Of a stretch of DNA of 64,000 bases, positions 50,215 to 58,707 are shown in pieces. Both the position numbers and the translations under genes were made by a program. The notes below the pieces were generated by a model, which was not told where the DNA came from, made no database searches, and saw nothing but the letters and a program-made list of their open reading frames with translations. Position 1 is the stretch's first letter, and every line of letters starts with the position of its first letter. The stretch is from a virus, in the IMG/VR virus record IMGVR_UViG_3300005613_000006, positions 32,001 through 96,000 of that record. One strand, given 5' to 3'.

Positions 50215-50884
50215 TTTTGAAACAGTCTTTCATTTCCATCCTACGGCGACCCGTAGTCTCATTCAAATCAGTCAAAGAGCGACACGCATTCAACAGCCGT
50301 ATCGCTATTCTTGCAGTCCATTTTGCATCAAACAACGCATCATGTGCGTTTTCCAAAACCTTCTTGTCTACTCCCATGTACTCCAAAATCGTTGGCAGCT
50401 TGATGTTCTTTATCTCTGGGTTGTTGTGAAACCACATCCACATTTCGTCTTGTACGTCGATGGCGAAGGCCGGGTTGAACAGGTTGGCCTCTTCTCTCTT
50501 GGCATCCCACTGTCCGTATTGCTGACAATACCGGCTCGTAATAATGCTGTCAAACCGTCTGATACCATAGCCTCCTCCAATGGGATAGGTAAACGAGTTG
50601 TCTCCCTTTCCCATACAGTGGCGTCGAACAAATGCCACAAACGAGGGCCAGACTACTTTCATTTCCGGCGCGGCCTCCAACCTTTCCATCGTAAACTTGT
50701 TGACCTTCAACGCCCCTGGCTCTACGGCGTCGAAATCTTCTGGCTTGCAATCACATACGAACTCATCCTTGATTTTCAAGTTGTAGCGGTTAACCGCAAC
50801 GGCCCCAATCTGGCAAATTTCACAGCTATGTGGGTTCTTGGCCACGGTCTCGTAGTCGTATATGATGTAGTGTCTATAGTCCAT
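50207..50884 (-). CDS. DEDDh 3'-5' exonuclease (DnaQ/epsilon-like)
   Basis: YDYET (ExoI), GYGIRRFD (ExoII), HDALFDA (ExoIII). Confidence 0.85.
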   Translation of the reverse strand: MDYRHYIIYDYETVAKNPHSCEICQIGAVAVNRYNLKIKDEFVCDCKPEDFDAVEPGALKVNKFTMERLEAAPEMKVVWPSFVAFVRRHCMGKGDNSFTYPIGGGYGIRRFDSIITSRYCQQYGQWDAKREEANLFNPAFAIDVQDEMWMWFHNNPEIKNIKLPTILEYMGVDKKVLENAHDALFDAKWTARIAIRLLNACRSLTDLNETTGRRRMEMKDCFKNG

Positions 50885-51941
50885 GCTGTACCTTCGGTAT
50901 CTTGAGCTTGGGTATGTTTCCGTTCACCACTATGTCGGTGACGATTTCTTCTAGTGTTTCGCGTTTGAAGTATGTGTAGGGGATTTCAATGTAGGTGATG
51001 CCGTGTTCTTTGCAGTATGCGCGTTTGCGACGGTCGTGTTCTATTGTTTCGGCAAACTTGTGAGCCCAGCCCCATTCACATCTGTAGTGTTGCGAACCAT
51101 TGGCTGCTATCATTAGATTGTGGTCTGGAAGATAGAAGTCGGGACGCAACTTCCTTCCGCCAATACCTCGCAAGTCATCTGATATGCCTCGATTGTGTAT
51201 GTGGTTAGTTTTTAATTTTGTTAGCACTTGTAGAATCACATATTCTGCTGCACTACTTAGGCATCCACATGATTTGACTTTGCCGTTCGCAATTCTACTA
51301 AAGTATATTGGTCCTATTTCGTTGCCGCACTCACATTGCGCCCACACACTACAACTATTATTACCAGACTTGACTTTTGTAATAGTTAACAAAGAGTGTA
51401 TATCTCCAATCTCTGGGTCTTGACAGTGCCCACATGATTTTGTTCCGTTGGGTCTGGTTATGTTGTTCAACGAAGCCAGAAAAATTGTTCCACAACGCGG
51501 GCATTCAAATTCAGTTTTTGTGTTGGCCTTAATATATTGTCCAACCAAACGAATACCAGCCGCCAATGCCCTGGCTTCTGCTTCTTCTTGTGTTAGCTTG
51601 TCGGGGCCTTTTAGTAATAAGCACCCACAAGACTTTGTGTTGCGAGATGCTATAGACTCCAATGTGCAAGGAAAAATTGTTCCACAGTATGGACATTCAA
51701 ATTCAGTTTGTGTGTAGTTGTTAATATATTGTCCAACCAAACGAACACCAACGGTTAGTGCTTTAGCTTCTGCTTCTTTCTGTGTGTGGTTCAGTGAACG
51801 TCCAACAAGATTTAATTTATTCAATTTGTTCTTCACCGAACTGCGACTTCGCCCCAACTTATTCATACAATACTCAACGCCATGTTGTAAATAATTTGAG
51901 TACAAAAAGTCTACTTCTGCCTGTGTCCATTCTCTTGCCAT
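50874..51941 (-). CDS. Putative homing endonuclease with duplicated Zn-ribbon repeats and a C-terminal DUF559/PD-(D/E)XK-like domain
   Basis: Two RLVGQYI...TEFECP.CGTIF...TKSCG repeats; LRPDFYLP...NGSQHY...D..K..YC....I.Y. Confidence 0.75.
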   Translation of the reverse strand: MAREWTQAEVDFLYSNYLQHGVEYCMNKLGRSRSSVKNKLNKLNLVGRSLNHTQKEAEAKALTVGVRLVGQYINNYTQTEFECPYCGTIFPCTLESIASRNTKSCGCLLLKGPDKLTQEEAEARALAAGIRLVGQYIKANTKTEFECPRCGTIFLASLNNITRPNGTKSCGHCQDPEIGDIHSLLTITKVKSGNNSCSVWAQCECGNEIGPIYFSRIANGKVKSCGCLSSAAEYVILQVLTKLKTNHIHNRGISDDLRGIGGRKLRPDFYLPDHNLMIAANGSQHYRCEWGWAHKFAETIEHDRRKRAYCKEHGITYIEIPYTYFKRETLEEIVTDIVVNGNIPKLKIPKVQHGL

Positions 51942-53908
51942 TAGAAGTGCCCCGTCTTGAGTAACTGCAAAGCCCCTCGAACCTTATCCAACATGGCAAT
52001 TCCAAGTATATCAAACTTCACCATGCCGATTTGTTCAAGGTCATTCATTTCCATCCCCGCGATAATCTCTCCCGTGGTCTTGTCGAAAACCATCGGACAA
52101 ACTTCATTGAGCGGTTCTGGTGAGATAACAACACCCGCCGCATGTTTGCTTTGTGAGCGCTTCGTTCCTTCCATCCTAATTGCCTGGGCAAAGTGTGGGG
52201 CCAACGGCCCTTGCAGATTGCCTTCGCTATCCAGGTACGCCCACTGCTTGAGTTCCTCATCGTTGTTCTCCAAGGCCCATTGGATAATAGATGCATCGCC
52301 GTCGCCGCCAGCTTCTTCGTCAGCCTTTCTCATCGCCTGTAACTGGTCCGAAATTTCTGCCTCGTCTGGAATGAACATCGTAATCCGATTCATTTCATCG
52401 AAGCCACATGCGTTGTGGGCTCGCAGCACGTCTTTCAACGCACCGCGCCCCTGCATACGTGTAAATGTAAGCATCTGTGCTACGCGGTCGCGTCCATAGC
52501 GGTCCCGTATGTATTCGATTATGTCGCCCCTGTGCTTAATCTCAAAGTCCATATCAACATCAGGCAACGAGGTCCACTCCGGTGTGTTGCGCCCGGCGTT
52601 GTAGAACCGTTCAAACAATAGGTCGAACTCGATGGGGTTTGGATGGGTGACGCTCAACAGATATAGCACAATCGTACCGGCAGCAGACCCACGACCCGCG
52701 CCAACTAGCCAACCCTGACTCTTGGCGTATGCCACTATGTCTTCCACAATCAGGAAGTAGTCGCTCAATGTGCTTTCACCCAGCTTGGTTTCCGACAACA
52801 CCTTAAACTCTTTCTTAAAGCGGTCGCCGTAATCCTTCTTGGTAAACTCGCTGTTGGCAATATGTCTCTCAATCTCCGGTTGTCGTTTCCTCCATCCCTC
52901 TCTACATTTTTCTTTCAAGTAATCGTTGGAAGACTCTCCATTAGGAGTTGGAAAACATGGAATGGCAGGGTGTCGCGTAATGTCGTAGACTTCGCACATG
53001 TCGGCAATGTCAAGCGTGGTCTTTAGCTCTGCCTCAGTGTGGCCTACGTCTATCATATCCTGGTAAGTAGGAATGTGGTAGTTGTTGCTGCGGAAGAATG
53101 ACCCTAGAGAAATATCCTCGTTTTGGATGCGTTGTTTGGTTACCTCGCGGAAGGTAATGTCCAGCTTGTTGCAGAGTAACACTCGCTGGTCTTCGGCGTC
53201 TTCGCGACGTGCGTAGTGGGCGTCGGGGACAGCAGCACAGGGAATACCGGCGTGACTACTAATGTGGCGCAAGCAGTCGGCCAGGACAATGAGAGCGGGC
53301 ATGTTCTTGCGGTCAATCAGAGGAACCTCAAGATAGAAGTTGCCTTTGCCAAACATGGATTCAAAGCGCTGGGCCACAGCGATACCGGCGCTATCCCAGT
53401 TGGGATTCAGATGGTTCTTGGCCATGTTGACACCGTGGGCCGAGGCAACCATCTTCATATCTGGAAAGATAACGCTAGCCATATCGCTGCCCATGTGACC
53501 ACTGAGACCAATGACGTTGCCATCAAGGAATTGGTCCAGAGTTTCCATATCCAGTCGTGGCTTGTAATAGAAGTTCTCAGGTTTGTTGGCTTCGCTAGTG
53601 AGTTCGATAAGCCTGCGCCAACCCTCGATGTTTTTGGCCAACAGAACAAGATGGGTCAGATATTTATTGCTCCGAAGATGTGGTTCTTCGTGGCATACGT
53701 AGAACTCGCAACCGATGATAGGTTTGAGGTTGCGCTTCTTCATGGCACCCAAGAAGGCAATCGCGCCAGCCAAACTGCCGTGGTCAGTCATAGCAGAGCC
53801 GGGAAGATTTGCTTCCACGCAACGCTTAGCTATGTCTTTGGGCTTGCTGAGGCCATCGAGTAATGAGTAGTGCGAATGACAATGGAGAGGAAAATATGTG
53901 TTTTTCAT
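51941..53908 (-). CDS. dnaE: DNA polymerase III alpha, N-terminal half (PHP, palm/thumb)
   Basis: LHCHSHYSLLDG, TDHG, GCEFY, DAHY, GRGSAAG, LLFERF, PDVDMDF, KHAAGVVIS, VKFDILG. Confidence 0.93.
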   Translation of the reverse strand: MKNTYFPLHCHSHYSLLDGLSKPKDIAKRCVEANLPGSAMTDHGSLAGAIAFLGAMKKRNLKPIIGCEFYVCHEEPHLRSNKYLTHLVLLAKNIEGWRRLIELTSEANKPENFYYKPRLDMETLDQFLDGNVIGLSGHMGSDMASVIFPDMKMVASAHGVNMAKNHLNPNWDSAGIAVAQRFESMFGKGNFYLEVPLIDRKNMPALIVLADCLRHISSHAGIPCAAVPDAHYARREDAEDQRVLLCNKLDITFREVTKQRIQNEDISLGSFFRSNNYHIPTYQDMIDVGHTEAELKTTLDIADMCEVYDITRHPAIPCFPTPNGESSNDYLKEKCREGWRKRQPEIERHIANSEFTKKDYGDRFKKEFKVLSETKLGESTLSDYFLIVEDIVAYAKSQGWLVGAGRGSAAGTIVLYLLSVTHPNPIEFDLLFERFYNAGRNTPEWTSLPDVDMDFEIKHRGDIIEYIRDRYGRDRVAQMLTFTRMQGRGALKDVLRAHNACGFDEMNRITMFIPDEAEISDQLQAMRKADEEAGGDGDASIIQWALENNDEELKQWAYLDSEGNLQGPLAPHFAQAIRMEGTKRSQSKHAAGVVISPEPLNEVCPMVFDKTTGEIIAGMEMNDLEQIGMVKFDILGIAMLDKVRGALQLLKTGHF

Positions 53909-53909
53909 T

Positions 53910-54611
53910 CTATTTATCCTTGGAATTATATACTACGACAGCCCGGCATAATTCTAACAATCTATCTAGTGATAGGTCCATTTTCATTTTGTTTACATCT
54001 TTATGAACCCACCACACATTGTCTTTTGTGTAGCCCCCGCAACTGTCAATCCGGTCTAGTGAGGCACTATTGTATAACACTATTGACAAGCCTGAAATAG
54101 CACACGCACCTTCTTGTTTCAACCATAATTCCCATAAAAACTTAGCGTCTAAATCAAACGTAAATTTCTTTTTTCTTGCACGACATCGTATATCTGCCAC
54201 CAAAGAGCCGTTAATGTCACAATATCCAGTCCAGCGGTGATTCTTTTTTCGTTTACGATAACACCCACAGCTTTTAGCACGCCCACTTTTCAAACGAGAG
54301 GTTGGCACTGTTGAAGTATTATCACATTGACATCGACATAACCAATTGATGCTTCCGTTGGCTGTTTTACCTACGGGTTTTATTGTGGTAAGTAAACCAA
54401 ATTGCATTCCTGGTTCTATTTGCCCTCGTAAATCTTGCTTGGGAATACCATGATGTTCAAGGTAGTCATATACCAACCGTACACTACAACCAACTTCGTC
54501 GGCAATGATATATGGAGATTTTTTGAGTTGAGTATATTGCTTCGACAGAAATTCTTTTGTTAATATGTCTTGATATACTGGGCTGAAACGGCCATTTTCT
54601 AATCGTGACAT
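53910..54611 (-). CDS. HNH-family homing endonuclease
   Basis: FGLLT, WLCRCQC, KSCGC, CAISG, ASLDRIDS..GY...NVWWVHKDVN.MK; AT-rich; homologous to 44368-44919. Confidence 0.85.
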   Translation of the reverse strand: MSRLENGRFSPVYQDILTKEFLSKQYTQLKKSPYIIADEVGCSVRLVYDYLEHHGIPKQDLRGQIEPGMQFGLLTTIKPVGKTANGSINWLCRCQCDNTSTVPTSRLKSGRAKSCGCYRKRKKNHRWTGYCDINGSLVADIRCRARKKKFTFDLDAKFLWELWLKQEGACAISGLSIVLYNSASLDRIDSCGGYTKDNVWWVHKDVNKMKMDLSLDRLLELCRAVVVYNSKDK

Positions 54612-54690: not shown

Positions 54691-55134
54691 CTATGGACAT
54701 GCAGGGGGAAATACGTGTTCATCTAGTTTCTCCAAAGTCTCATGCATCCACGACTCATCAAATGTGAAGGAAAGCTGACTTTTACCCCGTTGTGCTGCGG
54801 GTACTGTACTAGCATTCCTCATTATGTGGTTCAACAAGTCGCGTGTGAATTTCACCAAATTCTGATTGTACTCAACCTCGTTTGCGGGAGGTTTGTCAAC
54901 CATGTTCAAATCTTCGGCCACTTGCTGACAGCGAGCGGCGAGGTCCACCAGAGCATTCGTCCCCCCAATCTGGCGGCGCATCAAGTCGGTTGTCGAGACT
55001 TCTGGCCAAAAAGCCTCTAGCCCCTCTTCTAATATAGCCCGCGCGGCGTAAAAGTCAAGTACGACGGCGGGATTTTGCCATTCTAACCTTCGGATTTTTA
55101 GTTGGTCGCGTTGCTGTTCGGCAAATTGTCTCAT
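54691..55134 (-). CDS. Hypothetical protein
   Basis: 147-aa ORF in the operon. Confidence 0.55.
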   Translation of the reverse strand: MRQFAEQQRDQLKIRRLEWQNPAVVLDFYAARAILEEGLEAFWPEVSTTDLMRRQIGGTNALVDLAARCQQVAEDLNMVDKPPANEVEYNQNLVKFTRDLLNHIMRNASTVPAAQRGKSQLSFTFDESWMHETLEKLDEHVFPPACP

Positions 55135-55421
55135 ACTATCAACTCCAATTTCTGCAAGAGACCTTCCACTTCTTTCCTATTCCCTTTTTGATGAGCCTGC
55201 ACCAACGCCATACACAGATAGCGCAGCTTCCACAAGTCGTTGACAATCATGTGCATTGCGTTGCCAGAGATAACGTGGTCAGGTCCCTTAATCTCTTGAT
55301 TGATAGCCACAAGAGTGTCCAAATCCATAATGCGACGATTGAACGTCAGCTTCGGAGTGGCTGGTCCTGGTTCTGGTTTTGGCTTGTCGCTTGGTGGCGG
55401 CGTTGGCGCTTTAGCACCCAT
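55131..55421 (-). CDS. Hypothetical protein with a Pro-rich N-terminus
   Basis: Probable start MGAKAPTPPP, overlapping the upstream stop. Confidence 0.5.
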   Translation of the reverse strand: MGAKAPTPPPSDKPKPEPGPATPKLTFNRRIMDLDTLVAINQEIKGPDHVISGNAMHMIVNDLWKLRYLCMALVQAHQKGNRKEVEGLLQKLELIV

Positions 55422-55936
55422 TAGAATGCTCCCATTATTATCGTATCTGGTCTGGTACAAACCACACCAAGAGACATGTTTCCATAGTTGTGTACTTCCA
55501 ACTGTTTGTTCTCTGGTATCAACGTAAGAAAGGAACTGACCTTAGTGCAATCGAGATAAACAGCCAAATGCTTCTTCCCAACCGGGAGTGAACCGGCTAA
55601 CTCATTAACGAAGAAGTTGTACAACTCTTGGTCTGGGTCGAGGTCCATCATATCGTGCACAGTCACATGGGAACTCATCGCCGTTACGTAGCGATAAAGT
55701 TCATCACTACCAAAAGCATCATCCCAAGCATCAGTTCCGATAGCAACGTCGGTGATTCTATGCGTCCCATTTCTTCTCGCTACAGTCTTGCACAACGCAG
55801 ATAGGCGTGGGGTAAATTGTCCACACTTTGCCTCGTCGTCATACACCATTATGTTGCGATGCGTTCCAGATGCCAGTATGGTGTGCCACTGGTCACAGAA
55901 AATCTTGCGAACAAAGGATTTGTTGAAGAGTTCCAA
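55421..55936 (-). CDS. Truncated major capsid protein paralogue (C-terminal ~60% of MCP)
   Basis: aa 1-57 align ungapped to MCP 134-190 (31/57, counting the start residue as Met); a later block aligns to MCP 245-271 (14/27); ends IMGAF versus MVGSF; TTG start with RBS GAGGT. Confidence 0.85.
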   Translation of the reverse strand: MELFNKSFVRKIFCDQWHTILASGTHRNIMVYDDEAKCGQFTPRLSALCKTVARRNGTHRITDVAIGTDAWDDAFGSDELYRYVTAMSSHVTVHDMMDLDPDQELYNFFVNELAGSLPVGKKHLAVYLDCTKVSSFLTLIPENKQLEVHNYGNMSLGVVCTRPDTIIMGAF

Positions 55937-55951
55937 ACCACGACCTCATTT

Positions 55952-56974
55952 CTAACTCCCTGGATTTTGGTAATGCCCAATCTCGAACCCTGGATGGGTG
56001 TCTTCTTCCATTACCTTATCTATTCCTTGCGTCAACAACTTCTGATGTAAGTAGGAACAGATGGTGTGAGGTTGCCCAGTTCTGTTATTCAACTTGGTTG
56101 GGCTATATGCTTTCTTTCCGTAATAACACACGCGGTTGCAGAACCACCTATCGGTACGTTTCAGTGCAGGCCGCATCATGTTAGCAATAATGTCGAATCG
56201 TTTGTGCAACATGTCCAACGTGTACTTGCGGTCTTCTTCACTAAAAGCCATTGTGAAGGGACCACCATCCCTGACAAAGTGGATGGTCATTAACGTCTGC
56301 ATGTCTGGATACATGGTCTCAGCGGCATAGTTGTACATGAGCAACTGTGGGTCTTTGGTTAACTTCCAGAAGTCTTTTCTTTCTCCTGTCGCCCAGTCTT
56401 TCCGTTGACCACTCTTCCAGTCAATGATTTCGTAACGATGGTCGTCAAGTTTGGTAACAAGGTCAATCGTGCCCTTGATACATAGCTGCCCGTCTAGTGT
56501 TTTTCCGTTTGGCAAAGCAAAGTTGTAGTATGCCCACGGTTCTTCAATCGGTATGTTGAAGTGTGGCTCGGCAGCTATTACGTGAAGGTTGCGAGGGTCG
56601 AACATTTCCTCTCGGACAACATTTCCAACCCACTCTGTACAATCTCTTTTGTCGCGAGGATACCATTTGTGGGGCGACTTACCCACGTAATGGTCGTATG
56701 CTTTATCTATGAGGTACTGTACGTAACTAGCTCCGTACATGTACTCATGGTCCACTTTCATAGTTCCAAAAGTGTCATCCTTGAACGACTTTGTGCCCTT
56801 CTGATGGCACAACTTGGCATTCGCTAAACACTCGAATACCTTGTGAACTATCGTTCCCATTTCAGCCCTTTTGCCAGTCACAGCCGGTAATCCCAACACA
56901 TAGGTCAGGAAATACTGCATCTGGCAAATGCTGAACCCATTGTAGCTTGAGCTACGAAAGTAAGGTATTATCAT
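55952..56974 (-). CDS. PD-(D/E)XK exonuclease (Cas4/RecB-like)
   Basis: SSS.....C...Y, G..VH..FE, KGTIDLV, IIDWKSG, QL.MY, C-terminal Cys cluster. Confidence 0.85.
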   Translation of the reverse strand: MIIPYFRSSSYNGFSICQMQYFLTYVLGLPAVTGKRAEMGTIVHKVFECLANAKLCHQKGTKSFKDDTFGTMKVDHEYMYGASYVQYLIDKAYDHYVGKSPHKWYPRDKRDCTEWVGNVVREEMFDPRNLHVIAAEPHFNIPIEEPWAYYNFALPNGKTLDGQLCIKGTIDLVTKLDDHRYEIIDWKSGQRKDWATGERKDFWKLTKDPQLLMYNYAAETMYPDMQTLMTIHFVRDGGPFTMAFSEEDRKYTLDMLHKRFDIIANMMRPALKRTDRWFCNRVCYYGKKAYSPTKLNNRTGQPHTICSYLHQKLLTQGIDKVMEEDTHPGFEIGHYQNPGS

Positions 56975-57846
56975 TTGGTTGCCACATTAAGGGACTCTTC
57001 TCCTACTGTTACGAAACCCCACTCTTCTAGCTTCTCCGCAACTGCGCGGTTCTGCTCTGGGATGCTCATTTCGCGATTGTCAATCACGGCATCGAAGTCT
57101 TCAAGTGGAAAATCGTCCAAAGCGGTCTCACTCTCATGTTCATCCTCGCCCGCCATCGGTGCCCGCAAGAATCGAATCATCTTGCCACCGGCAGCTTGAA
57201 TACCCACAACCTCGTTGGGGAATCGGCAGTCTGTCACCACGGCCAAGGCTGGCATGGTCTTGCGAATCTCGCGAATCAGCGAGTCAACCCAACAGTTTCC
57301 ATACAGGCGACGGCATACATTGGTGCCAAACATTTGCATGACTTGTCGGGCGGTCATAAAGCCCGGCTCATGGTAAGTGAGAACAAAGTTCTCGTCGGTG
57401 TACGTATTGGGCACTTCTTCGACAAGGTGGTTGATTTCATGGGTCACGTCGTTGAACAAATACTCGTTCGTCATAACCCCAGGAAAATCTTCCCATCTGA
57501 TTTTGGTTAGGCTGTCCTTGTCCTCATTGCGACCGTAACACTGTGGATAGGTCAACCCCAACACATTGATGAGGAATTGCTTCAACGCATCAGCATTGCT
57601 GTACAACCGCAGGGCAAAGCCGATAGACTCGTTAAGCCACGCCTTCGTCTTCTCACTCTCGGGGTTAATCATGGCTTCTTGGAGCCCATGTTCCTCATCA
57701 TAGGCCGGTACTTCCAACTCACCCTTGGTGTTAATCTTCATCCACTCGATGAGGTCGAGGGACTTCATTACGTTACCCAGAATGAAGTTCGCAGAAGTAT
57801 TCTTTCCCGACATTTTTTTGCCGGAAAATCCTAATATTTGAGTCAT
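56971..57846 (-). CDS. Deoxynucleoside monophosphate kinase
   Basis: GFSGKKMSGKNT P-loop, TARQVMQMFGT..CR, TDCRFPNE, HESETALD. Confidence 0.88.
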   Translation of the reverse strand: MTQILGFSGKKMSGKNTSANFILGNVMKSLDLIEWMKINTKGELEVPAYDEEHGLQEAMINPESEKTKAWLNESIGFALRLYSNADALKQFLINVLGLTYPQCYGRNEDKDSLTKIRWEDFPGVMTNEYLFNDVTHEINHLVEEVPNTYTDENFVLTYHEPGFMTARQVMQMFGTNVCRRLYGNCWVDSLIREIRKTMPALAVVTDCRFPNEVVGIQAAGGKMIRFLRAPMAGEDEHESETALDDFPLEDFDAVIDNREMSIPEQNRAVAEKLEEWGFVTVGEESLNVATK

Positions 57847-58658
57847 TACATCATCTCCTCAAAAATTTTCTTTTTACGGTTTAGAGACCAACATTTACCA
57901 TCATACAATAGATGATATATTTCTAAGATTTTTTTACGACTACATACATACCACACATGCCAACTATTACTTTTGATTATATTTCCATATTGCTGCATAC
58001 TACAGTAGTTTCTAAGTTTGTCTAATGTTAAATATTGTTTTGCAACAATGTGCCACTTATAGTCTCGGCAAAAATACTTACCTCTGGTTCTTGTGTATGT
58101 GGCCACACATCCATCTCCATCAAACACACCTAATAAAAAATATTTCCTGAACCGTTTTGGTATTGTGGGTATCGTTGTTAAATATGTTTTTCTTGGTTTA
58201 ATACCCACATTAACTAATGCAGTTATCATGTGTTTGGAATCTATGGTAAACCAGCATGAATGATATTTACTACTCACTTGTTTTTTTATAATGGGTAAAT
58301 TGCCACCAAGTTCTAAATTGATAAAATCCAAAACACATTTATCTTTTTGAGATAAGCCAATGGTTAGTCTATATTTACCATCTTTCAGATAGATATTTCC
58401 ATCTGCAAAAATAAAGCCAACTATATATGCCTTGTTTGGTGTATCTATGGTATCAAAGTAGTGATGATTAAATGTATATTTATACTTGCGTTGATACTGG
58501 CCCTTGGGTTTATGAAGTAATGGAATATGGTGTAACTTAGCAAGATATTCTACTTGTTTAACCGTTAAATTTAGGTTGGTTGCTATGTCTTGTCGGAAAT
58601 CATGCTGGGCGCGGTCCACGATGTACTGGATTTGTTGTTCTGAAAATTTGTGATGCAT
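57846..58658 (-). CDS. LAGLIDADG homing endonuclease
   Basis: AYIVGFIFADGNI and FLLGVFDGDGCV motifs; very AT-rich; real start MHHKF after AGGAG. Confidence 0.88.
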   Translation of the reverse strand: MHHKFSEQQIQYIVDRAQHDFRQDIATNLNLTVKQVEYLAKLHHIPLLHKPKGQYQRKYKYTFNHHYFDTIDTPNKAYIVGFIFADGNIYLKDGKYRLTIGLSQKDKCVLDFINLELGGNLPIIKKQVSSKYHSCWFTIDSKHMITALVNVGIKPRKTYLTTIPTIPKRFRKYFLLGVFDGDGCVATYTRTRGKYFCRDYKWHIVAKQYLTLDKLRNYCSMQQYGNIIKSNSWHVWYVCSRKKILEIYHLLYDGKCWSLNRKKKIFEEMM

Positions 58659-58702
58659 AATATGTCTCCTGGAATAAGTTTGCCACATAGTATTATACAC
58701 CA
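58651..58702 (-). promoter_or_regulatory. Promoter TGGTGTATAAT (58702-58692) pairing with the start-codon region
   Basis: Minus strand TGGTGTATAA..TATGT pairs (two G-U) with ACATA-TTATGCATCA, which contains the ATG. Confidence 0.65.
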
Positions 58703-58707
58703 AAATC

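Follow-up and report, generated by a model that had tools for sequence, protein, structure and literature searches.

Several HK97-fold proteins are known to have been duplicated or repurposed, among them the encapsulins, which are complete, cytoplasmic, shell-forming proteins of cells, and gp24 of bacteriophage T4, a complete vertex protein of the virion. A literature search for twin-arginine (Tat) leaders on capsid-fold or HK97 proteins returned nothing relevant, which is not proof of their absence. The window, i.e. the whole 64,000-nucleotide stretch of DNA analysed here, belongs to a 172,878-bp IMG/VR virus record classified as complete by CheckV. Within its replication operon lies an open frame of 171 codons (55421-55936, minus strand; TTG start, TAA stop), which is very probably what is left of the 3' part of a capsid-like gene with a Tat leader and a predicted HK97 fold.

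The head module of the phage carries the gene for its major capsid protein (MCP; 2678-3685, plus strand; 335 aa). The open frame spans 2603-3685, with the true start probably at the ATG at position 2678, and its assignment as the MCP, proposed from the sequence alone, agrees with matches to phrog_2522 'major head protein' (E 1e-5) and to gp27 of phage G, as well as with a match to the NCBIfam model NF042927 'HK97-fold major capsid protein' (3.6e-8, below the cut-off of that model). BLASTP of ORF 55421-55936 against the MCP produced a single colinear alignment of residues 1-171 with MCP residues 134-335 (numbered as in the sequence-only reading), in which 66 of 204 positions are identical (32%; E 1e-29 for the pair) and which reaches the last residue of both proteins. 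The colinearity reported in that reading was therefore reproduced, and both sequence blocks quoted there (WHTILASG...RRNG and HDMMDLD...ELAGSL) are present. HMMER matches to dozens of MCP-length proteins also link the ORF to capsid proteins; in the HMM-aligned core, it is 42-45% identical to the MCP of its own phage and, to the same degree, to the MCPs of five relatives. The ORF does not encode a complete HK97 fold (N-arm, E-loop, P-domain with the full spine helix, and A-domain), and it lies 50 kb away from the head-morphogenesis genes (portal, protease or scaffold, MCP) and on the other strand. Without the N-terminal half of the fold, its product should not build a shell, as had been concluded before.

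Direct searches with the ORF were largely negative. A word-indexed search of 5.8 billion proteins retrieved only the ORF itself, in the form of a 142-aa call (P0004), for which the gene caller had chosen the ATG at residue 30 instead of the TTG at 55936. Neither tblastn and megablast against 50,697 phage records nor a scan of viral contigs gave a match, and Pfam and PHROGs contained no match for the ORF or for either of the two small ORFs that follow it. When a second capsid-like copy was sought in five long relatives of the phage (one of them complete), the true MCPs alone were matched. The search that led further was HMMER over 1.84 billion representative proteins, with 89 matches. The best of these, apart from the ORF itself, is P0005 (365 aa; E 1e-43), whose residues 176-365 align with the ORF over its entire length. 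P0093 (375 aa), identified by a word search with P0005, is approximately 80% identical to the ORF over the common part, the corresponding value for P0005 being 51-60%. Compared with P0093, the ORF comprises residues 191-375 minus residues 341-354.

The ORF, P0005 and P0093 are encoded in the same genomic slot. In the window, the following genes were distinguished in order, all on the minus strand: DnaB, primase, a LAGLIDADG homing-type endonuclease (57846-58703), a dNMP kinase, a PD-(D/E)XK (Cas4-like) exonuclease (55952-56974), which is the upstream anchor of the slot, the ORF, two companion ORFs of 96 and 147 aa (55131-55421 and 54691-55134, respectively), an HNH homing-type endonuclease (53910-54611), the N-terminal part of DnaE (51941-53908) and a further HNH homing-type endonuclease (50874-51941). 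The location between the Cas4-like nuclease and dnaE within a replication operon, described in the sequence-only reading, is accordingly correct. Contig L078 (45 kb) carries the genes of DnaB, primase, dNMP kinase, exonuclease (340 aa), P0005 (365 aa), orf91, orf149 and DnaE, whereas contigs L085, L086 and L088 carry the exonuclease, P0093 (375 aa), orf97, orf150 and DnaE. The full-length form was met again in L090 and L088, and L090 shows its full N-terminus. The more distant P0007 (contig L080) likewise follows the same DnaB, primase, kinase and PD-(D/E)XK series, and is itself followed by a homologue of the 147-aa ORF. The proteins P0093 (L085, L086, L088 and L090), P0005 (L078) and P0007 are orthologous and have the same neighbours as the ORF of the window. 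In addition, the full-length orthologues share with the window the spacing between the start codon and the exonuclease stop, and the TAATG overlap with the next gene. Unlike the ORF, they possess (i) a further 175-190 N-terminal residues, which comprise, in addition to the N-terminal half of the HK97 fold, a linker and an SRRDFLKG...-type leader, and (ii) 14 residues near the C-terminus that are missing from the window copy. That the ORF was made as a half protein standing alone, as had been proposed, is not supported: a protein of full length (365-375 aa) is encoded at each of the four other orthologous loci that were recovered.

The capsid-like gene diverges faster than its neighbours: between the window and L078 it is 51-60% identical at the protein level, against 82-94% for the flanking proteins. 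At the DNA level, the identity to L078 within the capsid-like gene is about 90% at both ends of the ORF and collapses in the middle (the part encoding the A-domain; window 55620-55850, minus strand, compared with L078:8600-8950). The L085 DNA is close to that of the window throughout, including the central segment, which suggests that this segment was swapped, or has evolved fast, in the L078 lineage.

The two small ORFs were always found behind a Tat-leader capsid-like gene (or, in the window, behind the ORF: 54691-55421, minus strand; L078:9098-9819; L085:2134-2876; and, for the 147-aa one, beside P0007 at L080:8330-8764). The ATG of the 96-aa ORF overlaps the stop codon of the preceding gene as TAATG, and its product is 74-78% identical to the counterparts in L078 and L085. 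The 147-aa protein is predicted to be mostly helical, and its homologue beside P0007 shares 37% identity with it. The two companions may be partners of the exported protein. The 147-aa protein was also considered as a TorD/DmsD-like Tat chaperone; this was unsupported, its model being of moderate quality (pLDDT 68) and matching no PDB entry at E <= 0.001.

The remaining content of the region is variable. Three homing-type endonucleases (HNH, LAGLIDADG and HNH) occur within 8 kb of the replication operon. The HNH gene between the companion ORFs and dnaE is absent from L078 and L085, and L078 is devoid of the two endonucleases that fall within its called genes. DnaE of L078 is a single 687-aa gene, whereas that of the window is cut after 655 aa by an HNH gene. 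Between the exonuclease and DnaE, every relative examined (contigs L074-L077 of G002-G005) carries different cargo: a HAD-like protein, a dUTPase-like protein, HNH genes, or about 8 kb of glycosyltransferase-like genes, and, as one type, an ORF of 377-407 aa resembling saccharopine dehydrogenase (judged by eye). Because the contents are quite different, these intervals are not usable as orthologous comparisons.

In a maximum-likelihood tree, the ORF, P0093 and P0005 form a group (SH-aLRT 99). This group is placed in a long-branched cluster that contains 15 of the 17 Tat-leader sequences. The true MCPs lie outside this cluster, among them that of the window, from which the ORF is separated by a path length of 2.9. 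Nearly all members of the cluster begin with a twin-arginine leader (e.g. MSSRRDFLKGVGGLFAGVAAW, MKSNRRGFLKGAMG, MERRNFLKRFLGGAAVAATAAVAG and MNRRDFVKCSAIAATGIAAG), i.e. the pattern S/T-R-R-x-F-L-K followed by a hydrophobic stretch. A regular expression for this leader selected 17 sequences, of which 16 are convincing, whereas P0089 appears to have been picked up falsely. With the NCBIfam Tat model TIGR01409, P0007 and P0024 scored above the cut-off, and others just below it. The ORF belongs to this family by the clade of its body, by orthology and by its shared slot, and its own leader has been deleted. A scan of viral contigs with an alignment of the family contributed no contig except the one on which P0007 had been found before. 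Genes of the family are located in early or replication regions and not in head modules. In contig L081, for example, P0009 (a Tat-leader capsid-like protein) is encoded amid genes of SSB, glycosyltransferases, methyltransferases and poly(A)-polymerase-like, DUF4326 and sigma-like proteins, likewise outside any head module. The sequence-only reading had named the ORF an MCP paralogue. It is indeed a capsid homologue outside the head module, but the Tat-leader capsid-like proteins with which it is classed form a separate clade of old origin, and it is a product of deletion; the suggestion of an exapted capsid domain suits the gene family from which it derives.

The structure of the intact protein was predicted with AlphaFold2 for P0093, using an alignment of 56 sequences (pLDDT 74.7, pTM 0.76). 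In this model, the leader and the linker (residues 1-63) are disordered, the prediction is confident for residues 160-375, and Foldseek matched it to the capsids of HK97 (gp5), T5 and DT57C and to encapsulins with a probability of 1.0. The parent family is accordingly predicted to have the HK97 fold. Transferred to this model, the first residue of the ORF corresponds to residue 191. The ORF thus enters the spine helix (184-216) seven residues after the start of the helix, and it retains the A-domain and the C-terminal strands. It is devoid of the leader, the E-loop region and the first P-domain strands, as well as of the short helix 344-348 and the start of the strand 351-364.

How the N-terminal half was lost is visible in the DNA alignment of the window (minus strand) with L078 and L085. 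The similarity of window and L078 covers the end of the exonuclease gene with its stop codon, a 2-nt spacer and the sequence ATGAG, the conservation extending up to ...GGGAGTTAGAAATGAG. After ATGAG the window lacks 512 nt compared with L078 and 557 nt compared with L085, and the similarity resumes at GTCGTGG, which places the deletion junction (ATGAG/GTCGTGG) at 55944-55945. Both edges of the junction carry AG, a 2-nt microhomology. The retained ATG (55949-55947) lies 2 nt past the exonuclease stop and is preceded by GGGAG, exactly as in L078 and L085. Both 512 and 557 leave a remainder of 2 on division by 3; since the gap is not a multiple of three, this ATG reads only 18 codons (MRSWFGTLQQILCSQDFL; 55893-55949, minus strand) before a TGA, in a frame +1 relative to that of the ORF. 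The window copy has thus lost its 5' part, and its ancestral start is stranded out of frame. In the frame of the ORF, a TGA occurs three codons ahead of the TTG, and these codons (GRG) still match those of the relatives (GRGLEVF). Ribosomal +1 frameshifting from the old ATG frame into that of the ORF was considered, and no defensible slippery motif was found for it. A second deletion, of 42 nt and in frame, is specific to the window lineage (55460-55465, minus strand; between ...EVHN and YGNM...). It removed 14 residues (P0093 341-354), and with them the R-x-G motif conserved in the family, a short helix and the first part of the last long strand. When the N-terminal half of P0093 was sought elsewhere in the 172,878-bp genome, it matched the true MCP only, which rules out a relocated copy of this half.

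The codons that are left show no sign of decay so far. Comparison with the intact orthologue of L085 over the 167 codons common to both gave a dN of 0.111 and a dS of 0.779 (omega 0.14). With L078 as the outgroup, 10 amino-acid changes are unique to the window and 9 to L085, and the lineage-specific synonymous and non-synonymous changes (24/17 in the window, 19/16 in L085) do not differ in proportion (Fisher p 0.82). Relaxed selection is thus not apparent in the ORF, whose 171 codons contain no stop. Neutral drift over the whole branch would be expected to produce about 70 replacements, from which it can be roughly estimated that the stump has been neutral for at most about 1/8 of its branch. 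The in-frame codon score of the ORF is positive and the best of six frames (0.07), but low compared with those of neighbouring genes (0.13-0.27). The absence of relaxed selection is compatible both with a young deletion and with continued translation of the stump. For a pseudogene, the sequence-only reading had expected broken close relatives and a dN/dS near 1. The situation is the reverse, with intact relatives, a damaged copy in the window and a dN/dS of 0.14, and a functional leaderless stump has to be considered on this account.

Such a live stump would be a leaderless, cytoplasmic half protein, containing most of the spine helix, the A-domain and the C-terminal strands and kept by selection. 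It would be translated either from the new TTG, located behind a GAGG motif created by the junction, or by re-initiation at Met30. Deprived of the leader, the protein would have moved from the envelope to the cytoplasm, with the true MCP or a host protein that senses capsids as possible binding partners; this arrives by another route at the decoy or dominant-negative role suggested in the sequence-only reading. In its original form, the idea of a cytoplasmic decoy sits poorly with the orthologues, since at 4 of the 4 other orthologous loci a Tat-type export leader is encoded and the window copy is an out-of-frame deletion product. We consider a live stump possible rather than probable, and the more specific version, in which a half protein made from the new TTG has been selected as a capsid mimic that switched compartment, rather doubtful. 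Several observations are nevertheless in favour of a live stump: besides the low omega and a substitution rate not accelerated relative to the intact orthologue, the second deletion preserved the frame, all 171 codons are open with the top score of six frames, and the allele is present in two slightly different genomes. The TTG is a derived codon, which arose in the window by two synonymous changes from the leucine codon CTA of both intact orthologues, and it stands seven bases behind the GAGG, an ideal spacing; a strict GGAG or GAGG precedes about 55% of the starts of this phage and 6% of random positions. The phage also keeps P0094 and P0095, small genes built from MCP pieces, which indicates that short capsid fragments can be useful.

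These points are balanced by others. The strong Shine-Dalgarno-ATG pair 13 nt upstream is intact and should dominate, driving ribosomes across the TTG into the 18-codon dead end. The argument from the TTG is post hoc, and the chance probability of such a site was estimated at a few percent. The Tat leader, found in all other recovered members of the family and in both small mosaics, is missing here, and so is the conserved R-x-G segment, which the mosaic P0094 specifically keeps. The stump would start in the middle of a helix of the fold, and none of the collections searched contained another lineage truncated in a similar way. Finally, every signal of selection listed above is equally expected under a recent deletion.

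It is highly improbable that the truncation is an artefact of assembly or sequencing and that the real phage carries a full-length gene. Such a suspicion may arise because the source record is a metagenome assembly and because P0093 was obtained from sister samples of the same studies (ERZ27256773; JGI Ga0180434 and Ga0180433). However, exactly this junction is also present in an 88-kb contig that was assembled independently from a different sample (L092; ENA ERZ27256772), which is 99.83% identical to the window and differs from it by 9 SNPs in 5,429 positions, none of them in the stump. The phage encoding P0093 differs by about 18% at the protein level in the flanking genes and is therefore another phage and not a collapsed variant of this one.

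Scarcely credible is a recent internal duplication, in which a fragment of the phage's own MCP gene was copied into the replication operon: the significant colinear similarity to the resident MCP and the nearby homing endonucleases, which could promote copying, are compatible with it, but it is refuted by the best HMMER match (P0005), the DNA alignment and the tree, as the ORF is 32-45% identical to the resident MCP and equally far from the MCPs of the five relatives, falls with P0093 and P0005 in the tree, and lies in exact flanking synteny with the full-length gene.

The explanation that we prefer is that the ORF is a 3' stump left by deletion in a second capsid-like gene, and that this stump is inert; to this statement as a whole we assign a probability of roughly 0.6. 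The origin by deletion is hardly in doubt, and the present state of the stump as an inert remnant is the probable one. The ancestral gene, as in related phages, would have encoded a protein of about 365-375 aa, composed of a Tat-type leader, a disordered linker and an HK97-fold body without the usual N-arm, and would have occupied the slot between the PD-(D/E)XK exonuclease gene and the two small conserved ORFs upstream of dnaE. A loss of approximately 512-557 nt between two AG dinucleotides would have taken codons 2 to about 190, and thereby the leader and linker, the E-loop region with the first strands of the P-domain, and the initial turns of the spine helix. Ribosomes starting at the retained ATG would halt after 18 codons, and a second loss, of 14 codons, would have taken the conserved C-terminal motif. 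The 171 codons would still be open because the event is young relative to the divergence from the nearest intact orthologue. The opposite direction of change, in which the full-length forms are fusions of two genes, is disfavoured by the deep full-length Tat-leader branches P0006, P0007 and P0009. That the stump has no function of its own we infer from the loss of a leader common to all other family members and to the mosaics P0094 and P0095, from the loss of the conserved motif, from the low codon score and from the old, strong start codon just upstream; the in-frame second deletion, the lack of a stop in 171 codons and the stop codon that still overlaps the next ATG count against it.

From its leader, the intact protein of the parent family is predicted to be exported. 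In the simplest mechanism, the folded capsid-like protein would pass through the Tat system of the host at an early stage of infection and reach the periplasm or the envelope. The phage encodes a TatA protein of its own outside the window (G000:C1:152075-152212, minus strand; PF02416, 45 bits, above the cut-off), which may supplement the Tat export of the host, and the presence of this gene lends circumstantial support to the predicted export. Of the five long relatives, G001 alone carries tatA (44 bits), and the complete relative G004 has none. Since the capsid-like gene is absent from all five and tatA from all except G001, the trait appears to be confined to a sub-lineage. The window also contains P0094 and P0095 (42060-43134), two intact, small, Tat-leader mosaics of MCP pieces. 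These mosaics, which combine capsid and tail pieces, resemble the parent family in containing capsid-derived sequence, in having a twin-arginine leader, in lying outside the virion module and in occurring in a phage with tatA. They differ from the stump in being intact, leader-bearing, short and shuffled, whereas the stump is colinear with the capsid fold, leaderless and a product of deletion.

Taken alone, the ORF probably matters little, and its value is that of a pointer and of a natural experiment. Through it, capsid paralogues of full length were found that have Tat leaders and a predicted HK97 fold and that occupy a conserved slot in the replication operon of a group of large uncultured phages. 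What is new is that the ORF is a beheaded member of this family, that the conserved slot otherwise holds a full-length gene and that two companion genes travel along with it. The phage of the window can be regarded as a natural knock-out or leader deletion which keeps tatA, the two mosaics and the companion genes; as it has no intact member of the family in the slot, that member is dispensable, at least in the short term. Once a host is found, a phage with an intact P0093-type gene and a phage without it would offer a ready comparison. The case also calls for caution, as an ORF that looks clean, has the size of a domain and shows good homology may turn out to be a frame-shifted stump, which only the orthologous loci reveal. 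If the stump were alive after all, its product could affect the assembly of the phage's own capsid or a capsid sensor of the host.

Compared with known systems, the ORF is homologous over the C-terminal 200 residues to HK97-fold MCPs (the MCP of its own phage, phrog_2522, NF042927, gp27 of phage G and HK97 gp5; PDB 2FT1 and 8CFA), and the model of the full-length orthologue resembles them in the spine helix, the A-domain and the P-domain strands. In contrast to these MCPs, the ORF lies outside the head module, has no N-arm or E-loop, belongs to a long-branched separate clade and cannot form the inter-subunit contacts needed for a shell. Encapsulins and T4 gp24 differ from both the capsid-like family and the stump, as neither of them has an export leader or is a half protein. 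With ordinary gene remnants of phages, the ORF shares the microhomology-flanked deletion, the stranded start, the broken frame and the position in a variable, endonuclease-rich interval; unlike them, it retains codons without a sign of decay and has a plausible new start site.
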